From a virus: a DNA stretch of 5,582 nucleotides. The DNA lies in the IMG/VR virus record IMGVR_UViG_3300045988_041489, positions 1 to 5,582 of that record, one strand, 5' to 3'. The translations under genes were made by a program, and so were the position numbers. Below are positions 1-5,582 of the stretch, in pieces (within the stretch, counting starts at the first letter, position 1; each line of letters opens with the position of its first letter). A model generated the notes under the pieces. The model did no database searches. It had not been told where the DNA came from and saw nothing but the letters and a program-made list of their open reading frames with translations.

Positions 1-141
1 GTTTTTTTTTTTTTTTGGTAAAATTAGAGAAAAAAAAGGAGGTGCAGCCATGAGCTACCGTAAAACCGTAAATCCGAAAACCGACAAGAAAGTATTTACC
101 AATACCGCAAAGAAAACGAAGAAAATCAACGTCAACCCGAA
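1..141. repeat. Terminal direct repeat, copy 1 (identical to 5442..5582); assembly overlap of a circular genome
   Basis: Base-by-base comparison by eye. G, T15, GGTAAAATTAGAG, A8, GGAGGTGCAGCC, ATGAGCTACCGT ... CAACCCGAA occurs at both window ends with an offset of 5441. The window stops mid-gene in the second copy, as expected when a circle is read past its start. Confidence 0.9.
16..24 (+). promoter_or_regulatory. Candidate extended -10 promoter element TGgTAAAAT (also at 5457..5465) for the J-like/structural gene block
   Basis: TG at 16-17, one spacer base, then TAAAAT at 19-24, which fits the TGnTATAAT pattern in 5 of 6 hexamer positions. No good -35 is present because the upstream sequence is the T15 tract. 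It lies about 14 nt upstream of the AGGAGG at 38-43. This is sequence pattern only. Confidence 0.3.
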
Positions 142-169
142 ACCGAGCCGAGGAGGCATCAGACTGTGA
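50..169 (+). CDS. Small highly basic protein (39 aa), J / ORF8-like DNA-binding packaging protein of Microviridae
   Basis: The ORF was translated by hand because it falls below the track cutoff: MSYRKTVNPKTDKKVFTNTAKKTKKINVNPKPSRGGIRL, with stop TGA at 167-169. It has 9 Lys, 3 Arg and 1 Asp. A strong SD (AGGAGG, 38-43) lies 6 nt before the ATG at 50. Its size and charge match phiX174 J (38 aa) and the small basic ORF8 proteins of chlamydial gokushoviruses. Confidence 0.7.
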   Translation: MSYRKTVNPKTDKKVFTNTAKKTKKINVNPKPSRGGIRL

Positions 170-390
170 TTGGACGAGCACGACCAGGCGAAAACAAAGG
201 CATGACAAGTCTGAGCATCTACCTGACACCGGAGGACTTTGAAGAAATCCAAGACTGGCGAGAAGAATTTGTCACAACCTACAGCGATATCGCACGCAAA
301 TGCATCAGAATCGGCCTAAAACACAAAAACGAGCTCTTCAAAGCGCTGGACGATGACCAGCAGAAAAGGAAGGAAAAATATGGAGTTTGA
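166..390 (+). CDS. Ribbon-helix-helix (CopG/Arc/MetJ-type) like small DNA-binding protein; function in this phage unknown
   Basis: The 74-aa ORF contains LSIYLT (beta strand), PEDFEEIQDWREEF (helix 1), a TTYSD turn/N-cap and IARKCIRIGL (helix 2), which is the RHH pattern. The GTG start at 166 has GAGGAGG at 150-156 (9-nt spacing) and overlaps the upstream stop as GTGA. The alternative in-frame ATG at 202 has a poor SD. The stop is TGA at 388-390. Confidence 0.55.
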   Translation: MIGRARPGENKGMTSLSIYLTPEDFEEIQDWREEFVTTYSDIARKCIRIGLKHKNELFKALDDDQQKRKEKYGV

Positions 391-2745: not shown

Positions 2746-3693
2746 ATGGCAGTACTTGAAACACTTGCAGGACTTTTGCCGATCATAACCGGAGGTGTAA
2801 GTCTCGCTGGACAACTTGGAAAAACCATAAAAGACCTGACAAGCAGCACAACCAGCAGCGGCAACACAAGCAGCGGCATGGGGCAGATGGGCATGAACAC
2901 GAGCTTCGGAAACACCGCAAGCAGCGGAAGCATGACCAGCAACACAACAACCAGCGGAAGCAACTGGCAGCAAGGCAGCATATCAGGAATCGCAAGCATA
3001 CTCAACAGCGCTCTGGGGACACCAACAGGAAACAACGCGACAGGGGCAGCAAACTGGAACGCGGGACAGGCAACCACGGCAAACAACCTGCAAACAGGTA
3101 TGTGGTCACTTGGCAACCTGATGAACCTAGGCAGCAATCTAGCAGCAAACGCAATGAATGCGGCAAGCCAGAGCAGCGCAATGCGATACAACAGCGCAGA
3201 AGCGCAAAAACAAAGAGACTGGACAGAGCGCATGAGCAATACGAGCTACCAACGCGGCGTCGCAGATCTCAAAGCGGCAGGTTTGAACCCGGTGTTGGCA
3301 GCATACAACGGCTACGGAGCAAACACAGGAGGCGGAGCGGAAGCGAGCCTGGGAGCGCAAAGCTACAGTCACACACAGGCAAACAGCATTCCGGCAGCAA
3401 AAATGGCCGAAATGCAAACAATGTACGACTACGGAAACAATACATCGCAATTTTTACAACAGGCGCAAGCAGCCATCAACGCAGCACGGCAAATGGGTGG
3501 CTACAATGAAGAAAAAGCATTCCGACAAATCACAAGCGACATCGTGAGCAGCAGTGCAAAAGATGTCAGCGCACTGGCAAAAACAGAGCAGAGCACAACA
3601 AGCGGAAACACCAGCACGACCGACCACGGAACAGAAAAAAATTACGCGCTATCCGGAAAGGGTCAGCTGGAATACCAGAGCAAAAAAAAGTAA
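2746..3693 (+). CDS. VP2: Minor capsid / DNA pilot protein VP2
   Basis: The 315-aa protein has the conserved core [37 protein letters not shown], which is the microvirus VP2/H signature (Q..R.....MSNT.YQR...D...AGLNP.LA). It has a hydrophobic N-terminus ([22 protein letters not shown]) followed by an S/T/N/G-rich low-complexity region. An SD (AGAGG, 2734-2738) precedes the ATG at 2746. It lies directly after VP1. Confidence 0.9.
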
Positions 3694-3722
3694 TTGAAAA
3701 ACACAGGAAAGAGGTGTATAAT
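3694..3722 (+). promoter_or_regulatory. Near-consensus sigma70-type promoter: TTGAAA (-35), 17-nt spacer, TATAAT (-10)
   Basis: TTGAAA is at 3694-3699 and TATAAT at 3717-3722, with exactly 17 nt between them and TG immediately 5' of the -10. The element starts right after the VP2 stop (TAA, 3691-3693) and lies 45 nt upstream of the next ATG at 3767. Confidence 0.6.
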
Positions 3723-3766
3723 ATGGGTGTATCAATCGTACACTTTGCCTAGAAAGGGGCACAACA

Positions 3767-3949
3767 ATGAAAAGTCAAGTAGTAGAAAGAATGAACATAA
3801 ACCTAACCGTGAAAGAAGTAGAAAACTTAAACTGGCTCTATGAATACTTCAAATGCGTAAAGTATAACAAAAGTGACTGCGTAAGAGAAGCAATAAACCA
3901 GCTGACGTTCATACTAAAAAACGAACACGGCGAAAACAAGCAAATTTGA
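3767..3949 (+). CDS. Ribbon-helix-helix (CopG-like) small protein encoded directly upstream of rep; candidate transcriptional regulator
   Basis: The 60-aa ORF reads MKSQVVERMNINLTVKEVENLNWLYEYFKCVKYNKSDCVREAINQLTFIL.... It has a beta strand (NINLT), helix 1 (VKEVENLNWLYEYF) and the classic RHH helix-2 signature S-D/E-x-x-R-E-A-I-x-x-L. An SD (AAGGGG, 3754-3759) lies 7 nt before the ATG at 3767. The in-frame ATG at 3791 is an alternative start. The stop is TGA at 3947-3949. Confidence 0.55.
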   Translation: MKSQVVERMNINLTVKEVENLNWLYEYFKCVKYNKSDCVREAINQLTFILKNEHGENKQI

Positions 3950-3964
3950 CGCGGTTGCACCGCG
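3950..3964 (+). other. Short GC-rich hairpin immediately after the RHH gene stop (CGCGGT / loop TGC / ACCGCG)
   Basis: It has a 6-bp perfect stem (3950-3955 pairs with 3959-3964) and a 3-nt loop. No T-tract follows it, so it is not a canonical intrinsic terminator. Confidence 0.35.
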
Positions 3965-4019
3965 CCAAAGGGAAACAAAAATCCATGGCAAAAAATAAGC
4001 GGGAGCTAAATTTTGTGTC

Positions 4020-4060
4020 AGTGGGGGGAATAGACATCAAGAGGGTCTATTCCCCCCACT
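4020..4060 (+). repeat. Perfect 16-bp inverted repeat (hairpin) with 9-nt loop in the RHH-rep intergenic region
   Basis: AGTGGGGGGAATAGAC (4020-4035) is the exact reverse complement of GTCTATTCCCCCCACT (4045-4060). The loop is ATCAAGAGG (4036-4044). It ends 11 nt before the rep SD (GGAGG, 4072-4076). No T-tract flanks it on either strand. Confidence 0.85.
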
Positions 4061-4088
4061 CTCCCCGGGAAGGAGGAAACGTCCATAC

Positions 4089-5237
4089 ATGGCATGCGCA
4101 AGACCGAACATCAGAATTTTTAGCGAGAACGAAAAAGACTATTTTGCGCCGCTGAACTGGTACATACAGCACGGAAAAAAAAGAACCGGCGAACCGGACA
4201 TGATAGCGACACAAAAAAGACGCGAACGAGAACTGAAAGAGATGATCAAAGACGGCAAAGCAGTGCTGTGCCCATGCAAACATTGTAATGGCTGCATCAT
4301 GGACAGGGGCAAGAGCTGGGCAAACCGCATGGAAATGGAACTGCCATACCACGATCAAGCATGGTTTTTGACATTAACATACGATAACGAACACGCACCA
4401 ATGAGCTACGACCAAGGTCTGGGCGTGGATGAACTGACAGGCGAAGTGGTAACGGAAAACATGACGCTCGACTATACAGACTTAGAAAAATTTTGGAAAA
4501 GGCTCAGACGCTGGACAGAGTACAACAACAGAGCGGTCTACATAACCTACAACGGCAAAAAGAAAAACGATCTAATGTATTACGCTGGCGGCGAATACGG
4601 AGGAAAAACACACAGACCGCACTATCATGCAATAGTATACGGCTTAAAAATCGAAAAAGAGGAGCTGAAGGAGTACAAAAAAGCAAAAGGCAAAGTATAC
4701 TATACCTGTGAATGGCTCACGAAACTATGGGGCAAAGGCTTTGTGATCATCGGTGCAGCGGAATGGGAAAGCATGGCATATACAGCAAGATACTGCACAA
4801 AAAAGAGCTATGGAGCAGGCGCAAAAGAATATTACAAAAACCTGGCAATACAGCCAGAGGATAGCAGAATGTCAACCAATCCGGCAATCGGATGGAGATA
4901 TTACGAGGAACACAAAGAGGAAATCTATAAAGAGGACAAAATACAACTCAAGAAAGGAAGAAGCTGTAAGCCGCCTACATACTTTGACAAGCTCTTTGAC
5001 CTGGAACACTCAGAAGCCGAACCGCTGACGGAAGAAGAATGCAGAGGAATTGAAGATGTAATAATAAAAGCCGAATCCGAAGAACTGAAAGAAATAAAGC
5101 GAAAACGGCGAAAACTCGCCAATGACGCGTTATTTAGTCAGCTCAAACAGACCGGCCTAACTATGCAAGAGTATTATAAACTAAAAGATCAGCGGAATCA
5201 AGAAAAATTTAAACAGCTCATAAGAGAGGAAGTATAA
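4089..5237 (+). CDS. VP4: Replication initiation protein VP4 (HUH rolling-circle endonuclease, phiX174 A-protein superfamily)
   Basis: The 382-aa protein has an N-terminal M.C..P and the Cys cluster CPCKHCNGC. Motif 1 is FLTLTYD. The HUH motif is PHYHAIVYG, with HYH encoded at 4620-4628. The two-tyrosine catalytic motif is YTARYCTKK, with Tyr codons at 4779 and 4791 spaced as in phiX A (YVAKY). An SD (AAGGAGG, 4070-4076) lies 12 nt before the ATG at 4089. Confidence 0.92.
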   Translation: MACARPNIRIFSENEKDYFAPLNWYIQHGKKRTGEPDMIATQKRRERELKEMIKDGKAVLCPCKHCNGCIMDRGKSWANRMEMELPYHDQAWFLTLTYDNEHAPMSYDQGLGVDELTGEVVTENMTLDYTDLEKFWKRLRRWTEYNNRAVYITYNGKKKNDLMYYAGGEYGGKTHRPHYHAIVYGLKIEKEELKEYKKAKGKVYYTCEWLTKLWGKGFVIIGAAEWESMAYTARYCTKKSYGAGAKEYYKNLAIQPEDSRMSTNPAIGWRYYEEHKEEIYKEDKIQLKKGRSCKPPTYFDKLFDLEHSEAEPLTEEECRGIEDVIIKAESEELKEIKRKRRKLANDALFSQLKQTGLTMQEYYKLKDQRNQEKFKQLIREEV

Positions 5238-5315
5238 AGAACGGCTAAATAAGGGCACTACATGCAGCAAGCGGAAAACAGGCGTGCAGCGCTGAACCTG
5301 CTTTTGATTTAAATG

Positions 5316-5350
5316 GACCGGGACGGAGTAAAACTCCGCTCCGGTCTTTT
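5316..5350 (+). terminator. Terminator-like imperfect hairpin plus TTTT downstream of rep
   Basis: GACCGGGACGGAG (5316-5328), loop TAAAA, then CTCCGCTCCGGTC (5334-5346). That gives 11 Watson-Crick pairs, one G-U and one A/C mismatch, followed by TTTT (5347-5350). The short U-tract makes it at best a weak intrinsic terminator. It could instead be an ssDNA structural element. Confidence 0.4.
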
Positions 5351-5419
5351 AAGGTGCGCAGGGCTCCGCGCTGCCGTTTACAGAAGAAGCTCCTGTTATC
5401 GGAAAAGACATAAAATCAG

Positions 5420-5457
5420 CAATGGCACGGAAAATGCCATTGTTTTTTTTTTTTTTT
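5420..5457 (+). terminator. Rho-independent terminator: 8-bp stem, 7-nt loop, T15 tract
   Basis: CAATGGCA (5420-5427) is the exact reverse complement of TGCCATTG (5435-5442). The loop is CGGAAAA. Fifteen consecutive T follow immediately (5443-5457). All genes are co-oriented with it. The T-tract portion recurs at 2-16 because of the terminal overlap. Confidence 0.75.
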
Positions 5458-5582
5458 GGTAAAATTAGAGAAAAAAAAGGAGGTGCAGCCATGAGCTACC
5501 GTAAAACCGTAAATCCGAAAACCGACAAGAAAGTATTTACCAATACCGCAAAGAAAACGAAGAAAATCAACGTCAACCCGAA
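5442..5582. repeat. Terminal direct repeat, copy 2 (identical to 1..141)
   Basis: As for copy 1. The offset of 5441 nt defines the unit genome length. Confidence 0.9.
5491..5582 (+). CDS. Redundant partial copy of the 39-aa basic J-like gene (same locus as 50..169, truncated by the window end)
   Basis: It is identical to 50..141 and lies inside the terminal overlap. It is not a second gene in the real circular genome. Confidence 0.7.
   Translation, partial: MSYRKTVNPKTDKKVFTNTAKKTKKINVNP

Follow-up and report, generated by a model that had tools for sequence, protein, structure and literature searches.

A candidate self-regulating ribbon-helix-helix gene and a probable replication origin upstream of rep in a clade of gut gokushoviruses

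The window considered here, the whole stretch of 5,582 nucleotides (nt) of the IMG/VR virus record IMGVR_UViG_3300045988_041489, is the complete genome, a circle of 5441 nt, of a gokushovirus-type microvirus, with bases 1-141 recurring at 5442-5582 as a 141-nt terminal repeat. It carries VP1, VP2, VP3, VP4 and VP5 on one strand of a circle within the 4.5-6 kb range of Gokushovirinae-like Microviridae, and every gene is on the + strand. VP1 (Pfam Phage_F, E 3e-166), the VP3 scaffold (Chlamy_scaf, E 2e-32) and VP5 (Phage_ORF5, E 1e-9) all have Pfam matches, VP2 matches pilot-protein PHROGs, and the translation of VP4, the HUH rolling-circle initiator (Rep), shows the motifs FLTLTY, HYHAIV and YTARY. 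The region of interest lies between VP2 and rep, where a promoter-like site (P1), a small open reading frame resembling ribbon-helix-helix (RHH) genes (ORF60) and two hairpins follow one another (Table 1). An initial annotation, made from the letters of the sequence alone, had described the region as a promoter, a 60-amino-acid (aa) ORF, a 139-nt spacer with two hairpins and an HUH Rep gene, and had likened it to the copG-repB copy-control operon of rolling-circle plasmids; all of these parts were found where it had placed them.

By comparative evidence ORF60 is a real protein-coding gene, because its homologues occur on microvirus-sized contigs, its ratio of nonsynonymous to synonymous substitution rates (dN/dS) is 0.01-0.16 and it has a conserved Shine-Dalgarno sequence. 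The close homologues form 48 clusters at 74-98% identity, none of them on a contig >5.9 kb. A profile search recovered 25 clusters among 1.8 billion representatives and 307 clusters in a larger collection, in which one member is on a 48-kb contig and, of the others on contigs >5 kb, most are on contigs of 5.4-5.9 kb. The dN/dS values come from the first 50 codons in seven close relatives, with synonymous sites often saturated, and across relatives the proteins of the family diverge to ~40% identity. The Shine-Dalgarno-like sequence reads AAAGGGG in the window and TAGGAGG in relatives. Conservation of the ORF and purifying selection on it had been named beforehand as a check on the plasmid-like proposal, and both were borne out, the former by ~300 homologous clusters. 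A hidden Markov model (HMM) of the family matched only genomes with a VP1 at least 69% identical to that of the window, here called the RHH clade, and had no match in the other genomes examined of the A group or T group, which are defined below by strand composition. The promoter and RHH gene therefore look like a clade-specific insertion upstream of an older arrangement of origin and rep. ORF60 is without annotation in any GenBank relative, which agrees with the earlier remark that gokushovirus descriptions include no dedicated rep regulator. One near-complete genome of the RHH clade (5664 of ~5756 nt; L275:6174-11837) forms the end of an ENA contig of 48,421 nt (k141_41694), where its neighbours are ABC-transporter/FtsX, HTH_3 and ParM-like genes; it may be a copy that is integrated or carried on a plasmid, or else a chimera of the assembly.

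It is likely, from the conserved residue pattern and the predicted structure, that the product of ORF60 is an RHH protein. The family consensus, MKSQvaKRiNINLT.kE...L...(turn)SDIIRDAI, keeps the RHH pattern of an alternating polar/hydrophobic strand, helix A, a capped turn and helix B throughout 31 diverse members, among which M1, Q4, R8, N10, L13, T14, S36 and R40 are invariant. R8, N10 and N12 are predicted to face outward from the strand, and S36 probably caps helix B. The AlphaFold2 (AF2) model of the monomer has an extended N-terminus followed by helices at 15-31 and 35-55, with a predicted local distance difference test score (pLDDT) of 72. Weak matches (E <1) to Pfam RHH_1 (PF01402) were obtained for 14 of the 31 members; one homologue, P0069, passes the gathering cut-off over the full model (22.4 bits against 20.5), and P0068, P0067 and P0065 reach 17.5-18.5 bits. 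The best matches of the family profile in the PDB are weak (E 0.009-1.7), the second best being 2k9i (E 0.27); of these matches 2k9i, which is pRN1 ORF56, and 7ycv, a ParD antitoxin, are RHH proteins. Alignment of the family by hhalign with an approximate CopG sequence placed the whole domain in register (Prob 65%, E 6e-5), and one member carries a JGI label as an Arc/MetJ-type RHH regulator. In P0049, a protein of 125 aa from a 5520-nt contig, the RHH-like domain is naturally duplicated in tandem within one polypeptide, and the second repeat resembles the subfamily of the window (..ECLKEAINQLAF). The window also holds a second small RHH-like ORF, ORF74 (LSIYLTPEDFEEI...YSDIARKCIRIGL), with 3 close homologues in a large protein database and, by local jackhmmer, a diverse family syntenic across the RHH clade. 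Members of that family have weak Pfam matches to RHH_1, RHH_3 and RHH_5 (E 0.013-0.17), and hhalign aligned the two families in register (Prob 60%, a weak profile-profile result); BLASTP of ORF60 against ORF74 gave no alignment.

The promoter that had been proposed directly after the VP2 stop codon stands. P1 matches 11/12 consensus positions and is the top-scoring promoter-like site of the window, where such sites number 7, not above the shuffled expectation of 4.0 +/- 2.0; it is kept as TTGACA-17-TATAwT in 48/50 distinct relatives. A block reading GGTGTATAwTATGrGTGTAnnAATCnnACAC, from about -17 to +20, is almost invariant in 48 distinct relatives, and the invariance of these 30 nt contrasts with saturated synonymous sites and RHH proteins down to ~40% identity in the same genomes. 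Two copies of GGTGTA, at 3713 and 3726 and thus 13 bp apart, form a direct repeat in the block of the window, which also has an inverted pair, GTGTA (3727-3731) and TACAC (3738-3742), 11 bp from centre to centre. A promoter of at least 10/12 upstream of the second hairpin was found only in genomes with the RHH gene; A-group genomes without that gene in which the hairpin was located have no strong promoter upstream of it. In 23/44 distinct full genomes of the clade a second near-consensus promoter, for example at L002:1255-1330 and L194:1205-1280, lies downstream of rep and is followed by variable small accessory ORFs. It reads cTTGACAaGTGTAT-n-aGGTGTATAATaaaGGTGTAgaaagga, with three GTGTA copies 13 bp apart, and so repeats the GGTGTATAAT...GGTGTA arrangement of P1; the window has P1 alone and lacks the post-rep promoter. 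Repeat motif and RHH ORF are both present in 64 genomes and both absent from 97, with 3 exceptions. The block resembles an operator shared by a small regulon, which ORF60 would bind, because P1 is limited to RHH genomes, the motif recurs at the second promoter and the motif accompanies the RHH ORF; that the residues presumed to read DNA are invariant fits as well. In the partial GenBank record of one close relative, marked UNVERIFIED (L001, MG945373.1, 3690-3950), ~260 nt separate VP2 from the RHH gene, and the 110 nt 5' of that gene lack the conserved P1 block.

The second hairpin of the spacer (hairpin 2) is probably a rolling-circle origin with a candidate nick site, since it covaries, has an invariant loop bearing the nick core of a related Rep family and lies beside rep. 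It is universal in the RHH clade, and among 18 distinct sequences 14/18 pairs have changed on both sides with 96.9% of cells paired and no G-U pairs in the core, values reached by 0/500 shuffles; the hairpin-bearing region, folded as DNA, has z = -6.5 against shuffles. The loop RTCAAGAR (TCTTGAY on the - strand) and the 5' flank TTGTGTCA are invariant in the clade. On the opposite strand the element runs stem - nCTTGAT - stem - TGACAC, with the TGACAC motif of the flank 3' of the hairpin on the strand bearing the CTTGAT loop; positions T8-A15 of the flank (alignment A5) vary hardly or not at all, and gokushoviruses generally have the (G)TGACAC flank. The phiX174 record J02482 annotates the viral-strand origin at CAACTTG|ATATT, and the core CTTG|AT(A) near rep that defines a phiX174/pC194-type origin is found in the - strand loop CCTCTTGAT. 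The exact CTTGATA is absent from the window, the loop having CTTGATG; in many relatives, gokushoviruses of the T group, the loop is exactly ctatCTTGATAta. A loose pattern for this origin gave many chance matches in large viral contigs, and its matches were filtered for real stems. The same element lies upstream of rep in genomes without an RHH gene, on the - strand in Dulem virus 202 and Gokushovirus WZ-2015a and on the + strand in Chp2, SpV4 and bajarodmic virus 876. Judged from that distribution hairpin 2 is not part of an RHH regulatory device; it is a gokushovirus-wide origin-type hairpin. A literature search, with the Chp2 and phiMH2K papers outside its scope, found no description of a gokushovirus origin, of RHH proteins in Microviridae or of strand polarity. 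Hairpin 2 is also flanked by a direct repeat, GGAAAC..TCCAT..ATGGCA (75% identity, 3971-3990 and 4075-4094), and the start codon of rep is in the second copy. The repeat may be due to chance, the scar of a duplication or an iteron-like site; relatives have comparable motifs, CAACAT..ATCCATrG and GAAAC..ATG, around the hairpin.

Table 1. Positions of genes and sequence elements in the window
Feature	Position	Strand	Description
J-like basic protein ORF39	50-169	+	39 aa
ORF74	166-390	+	74 aa from GTG, 62 aa from ATG 202; directly after J-like ORF39
VP2 pilot protein	2746-3693	+	
Promoter P1	3694-3722	+	-35 TTGAAA (3694-3699), 17-nt spacer, -10 TATAAT (3717-3722); predicted start near 3729
Operator-like block	3713-3742		GGTGTATAATATGGGTGTATCAATCGTACAC; overlaps -10, to about +14
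ORF60	3767-3949	+	60 aa, RHH-like: strand RMNINLT (residues 8-14), helix A 15-31, turn NKS, helix B 35-55
Hairpin 1	3945-3969		TTTGACGCGGT-TGC-ACCGCGCCAAA; 11-nt arms, one mismatch (91% complementary); overlaps ORF60 stop codon
Conserved flank	4007-4019	-	TAAATTTTGTGTC on +, GACACAAAATTTA on -; with A4020 (outermost stem base) gives TGACAC
Hairpin 2 (candidate origin)	4020-4060	-	16-bp perfect stem, 9-nt loop (4036-4044); loop ATCAAGAGG on +, CCTCTTGAT on -
rep Shine-Dalgarno	4071-4076	+	AGGAGG, 12 nt 5' of ATG; GGAGG or GAAAGG at the same spot in relatives
VP4 HUH rolling-circle Rep	4089-5237	+	382 aa; Pfam PF23343 (REP_ORF2-G2P) E 1.6e-14; PHROG 942 E 2e-89
Terminator region closing the unit	5313-5457	+	hairpin near 5313-5345 then TTTT; hairpin 5418-5444 then T15

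At 5418-5466 the terminator hairpin and its T15 are followed by TGGTAAAAT, an extended -10-like motif, and the T-run with TGGTAAAAT recurs at 2-24. The motif is ~25 nt 5' of the Shine-Dalgarno sequence of ORF39 and may be a promoter of the structural genes.

Between 3722 and 4089 the + strand has no other promoter-like site and no terminator; terminator-like sites on that strand come after rep, at 5324-5343 and 5418-5444. ORF60 and rep would then form one transcription unit behind P1. An autoregulated unit of this kind is the best reading of the region and is plausible because an RHH-like gene, a promoter of its own that co-occurs with the gene, repeats over -10/+1 and the lack of an intervening terminator are found together; we infer binding, repression and co-transcription alike, from sequence and from analogy. 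A transcript from P1 would run through ORF60 and both hairpins into rep and stop at the post-rep terminators. Dimers of ORF60 on the GGTGTA/TACAC repeats, from -10 to about +14 of P1, would repress their own promoter and thereby cap the synthesis of Rep, by analogy with CopG, Arc and pRN1 ORF56, and in the roughly half of relatives with the same repeats on a post-rep promoter the protein probably controls more than rep. Taken over the whole clade, the favoured reading, to which a probability of about 0.55 is given, is that these gut gokushoviruses gained P1 and ORF60 as a self-regulating module between VP2 and a pre-existing origin hairpin and rep, with hairpin 2 separate from the module.

Several observations weigh against this reading. 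The initial annotation had called the RHH signature clear and had proposed a search of RHH families; the motif pattern and the predicted strand-helix-helix hold up, and the family has its one member above the RHH_1 cut-off and its weaker matches, but ORF60 itself found nothing significant in Pfam, in PHROGs (weak, E 0.07) or among PDB sequences. Foldseek likewise gave nothing significant (E >0.3) for the ORF60 monomer against PDB and BFVD or for the model of the tandem homologue against PDB, with some of the matches named RHH, and the AF2 model of P0049, used as a stand-in for a dimer, has no beta-ribbon and a pLDDT of 56-65 in the second repeat. The 13-bp spacing of the direct repeats is no helical repeat, and the invariant block could be a promoter or 5'-untranslated-region element, or an iteron bound by Rep, since it resembles the GGTGTCA origin flank. 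An acidic C-terminal tail with LPF, mostly SEEEDLPF, is found in 49/146 retrieved proteins of the family (for example P0073, L003:5204-5416 and L019). The C-terminal tip of bacterial single-stranded-DNA-binding protein (SSB), DDDIPF or DDDLPF, recruits replication and repair proteins, and the likeness of the tail to it suggests, by analogy, that in a third of the family the protein recruits replication proteins rather than acting as a plain repressor.

That tail leads to the view that ORF60, like the RHH proteins of conjugative relaxosomes on which the idea is modelled, is an accessory factor of the origin, instead of or besides a repressor, which binds near the origin hairpin and helps the HUH Rep to melt or nick it or recruits host replication proteins. 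The gene is suitably placed, 70 nt from the origin-type hairpin and directly upstream of the HUH rep gene, and GTGT is common to the origin flank TTGTGTCA and the promoter repeats. The tail is, however, present in 0/47 proteins of the window-type subfamily, and the hairpin and its flank are equally conserved without an RHH gene, so the origin works without ORF60; moreover, of the conserved DNA that is peculiar to the RHH clade, the strongest is found at the promoters and not at the origin. A role as accessory factor is thus considered quite unlikely. A wider role has also to be weighed, in which ORF60 acts on several promoters as a phage-wide switch, an early/late or immunity-type repressor like Arc and Mnt of P22, and rep dosage is a side effect. 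The post-rep promoter with three GTGTA in 23/44 genomes, which drives accessory ORFs and probably structural genes, speaks for such a switch, as do the syntenic ORF74 family and the relative at the end of the 48-kb contig beside bacterial or plasmid genes. Against it, the window itself has P1 only, that contig may be a chimera, and among 185,579 species genomes there was no integrated copy of the clade, although the VP1 scan of them gave many gokushovirus prophages. A switch of this breadth is held to be distinctly unlikely.

The spacer allows two further explanations. Hairpin 2, located 28 nt 5' of the ATG of rep (4089) and covered by the predicted transcript, might be an RNA-level element that stabilises or attenuates rep mRNA, or a complementary-strand origin (primosome or RNA-polymerase entry on the packaged strand), and not a nick site. 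Hairpins just before rep in the reekeekee- and roodoodoo-microviruses, with an identical loop and compensatory stem changes, have been suggested as minus-strand origins (PMC9865509); they are likened to hairpin 2 by description only, and neither a phiX-like nick core nor an orientation switch is reported for them there. An RNA element is made improbable by the occurrence of the hairpin in both orientations relative to the mRNA, which such an element would not tolerate; a complementary-strand origin, which would be equally strand-specific, may still apply. Changes in the core stem are Watson-Crick only, without G-U, and the invariant loop equals the phiX174 nick core, and a role other than that of nick site is accordingly judged unlikely. 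The other explanation is a true pMV158-type circuit, in which the RHH repressor is joined by a spacer antisense RNA that blocks rep translation, the module being shared with plasmids. The order of RHH gene, spacer and HUH rep behind a single promoter is in its favour, and the 139 nt of spacer that separate the stop codon of ORF60 (3949) from the ATG of rep (4089) do contain both of the hairpins that had been noted. Its sole - strand promoter-like site (4021-3992, 9/12) would suit an antisense RNA, as would hairpin 1, which scores as terminator-like on the - strand. The -10 of that site, however, is not conserved in relatives, and an antisense RNA in the spacer was rejected on this ground. Hairpin 1 is optional: a GC-rich hairpin occurs at its position in 26/49 distinct relatives, with several unrelated stems and never a + strand T-run after it, and is absent from, for example, L008 and L020-L026, so that about half of the clade lacks it; some relatives have merely 26-45 nt of spacer before hairpin 2. 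The spacer as a control region of CopG/RNAII type was rejected as well, since hairpin 2 predates the RHH gene and occurs in gokushoviruses without it, including Chp2 and SpV4. An Rfam search of the whole window (E up to 1) was empty, tblastn of ORF60 against 72,556 plasmids (PLSDB) found no match, and the Rep is of the microvirus VP4 type (PF23343/PHROG 942) and not of the RepB family. A full pMV158-type circuit is therefore highly improbable, and the antisense-RNA analogy of the initial annotation and its idea of module exchange between plasmids and microviruses, for which the species genomes also held no copy, are both disfavoured.

The likeness to copG-repB is accordingly a partial one. Common to both are a small RHH-type gene directly upstream of an HUH initiator gene and a single promoter with repeats, and by analogy the expected logic is autorepression limiting the synthesis of the initiator. 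Unlike copG-repB, the clade of the window has no conserved antisense RNA promoter, its candidate operator overlaps -10/+1 and not -35, its origin-type hairpin lies between the two genes and not upstream of the promoter, its Rep belongs to PF23343, and ORF60 is below the RHH_1 threshold and has no plasmid homologue. The phiX174 gene A origin and those of the pC194 family share the core CTTGAT(A), and their Rep is in the same HUH class with a two-tyrosine motif; in phiX174, though, the core is in unstructured coding sequence, whereas in the window it is in the loop of an intergenic, covarying 16-bp hairpin and on the non-coding strand, as a candidate nick site only. P22 Arc and Mnt and omega of pSM19035 are, like ORF60, small phage or plasmid RHH-type proteins, which read short direct or inverted repeats over core promoter elements, and relatives of the window have the same repeats at two promoters. 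The half-site centres of the Arc operator are 11 bp apart, like those of GTGTA/TACAC in the window, but ORF60 has no sequence match to this group beyond the weak PHROG one. In the Sulfolobus plasmid pRN1 an RHH repressor is described in PMC4234260 as co-transcribed with the replication protein (orf56-orf904). The RHH gene there is in one operon with a replication gene and its product gives the second-best PDB match mentioned above; that match is weak, the replication protein is a primase-polymerase and not an HUH nuclease, and the host is archaeal.

The orientation of the candidate origin varies between gokushoviruses. The three + strand genomes named above have its CTTG loop on the coding strand; Dulem virus 202, WZ-2015a, Human gut gokushovirus and the window have it on the non-coding strand. 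Strand composition was surveyed in 80 diverse IMG/VR gokushovirus genomes oriented by VP1 (L201-L274 and others), together with GTDB loci (L278-L350) and GenBank isolates (L193-L200). Two compositional classes emerge, with coding-strand AT skew near -0.1 and near +0.35; in the 80 genomes the skew is strictly bimodal. The T group (45 genomes, skew -0.20 to +0.005) has the hairpin on the + strand in 35 and on the - strand in none; the A group (35 genomes, +0.27 to +0.39) has it on the - strand in 31, with no true + strand copy. At four-fold degenerate VP1 sites AT skew averages -0.77 for T-group genomes and +0.46 for those of the A group. The groups are interleaved on a rough VP1 neighbour-joining tree, in which L218 of the A group, to name one case, has L221 of the T group as its sister. 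In the independent GTDB set 7/7 genomes with - strand hairpins have positive skew, and 42/42 do so when the IMG/VR set and GenBank cases are included. The rule is thus confirmed in one direction only, and composition is an imperfect proxy for the packaged strand, because phiMH2K and five environmental positive-skew genomes of the GTDB set have an A-rich coding strand and the hairpin on the + strand. From these patterns it seems that hairpin and flank have flipped as a unit several times in the family and that strand composition has largely followed. If hairpin 2 is a viral-strand origin, or another strand-specific single-strand element, the packaged strand of the A group, to which this phage belongs, would therefore be antisense to the genes. 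That hairpin 2 is indeed the viral-strand origin, with its nick core on the antisense strand, and that this phage and a large group of gut relatives displace and package that strand, is put forward tentatively, at somewhat short of even odds. Microviridae are described as positive-sense; antisense packaging is not forbidden, because transcription needs the double-stranded form either way. Two prophage-like gokushovirus loci, in Intestinirhabdus alba (L303) and in a metagenome-assembled genome of Clostridia (L291), have two CTTGAT hairpins in the scanned region around VP1, which could mark prophage ends or tandem copies.

To our knowledge microviruses have been regarded as minimal phages that lack transcription regulators of their own, and none has been described in the family. 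ORF60 represents a new protein family in a virus family of this kind. If the favoured reading is true, P1, the operator-like repeats and the RHH gene before rep would amount to the first proposal of a regulatory circuit in gokushoviruses and would offer a way to learn how these abundant gut phages persist or keep their replication in check. If hairpin 2 is the viral-strand origin, the P1-RHH module would also fire transcription through the origin towards rep, coupling expression of the regulator with use of the origin. The comparison of hairpins has a worth apart from the RHH gene in that it provides a concrete candidate for the gokushovirus replication origin. It also suggests that the packaged strand may differ between lineages, which, if true, would mean that there are negative-sense microviruses in a family described as positive-sense.

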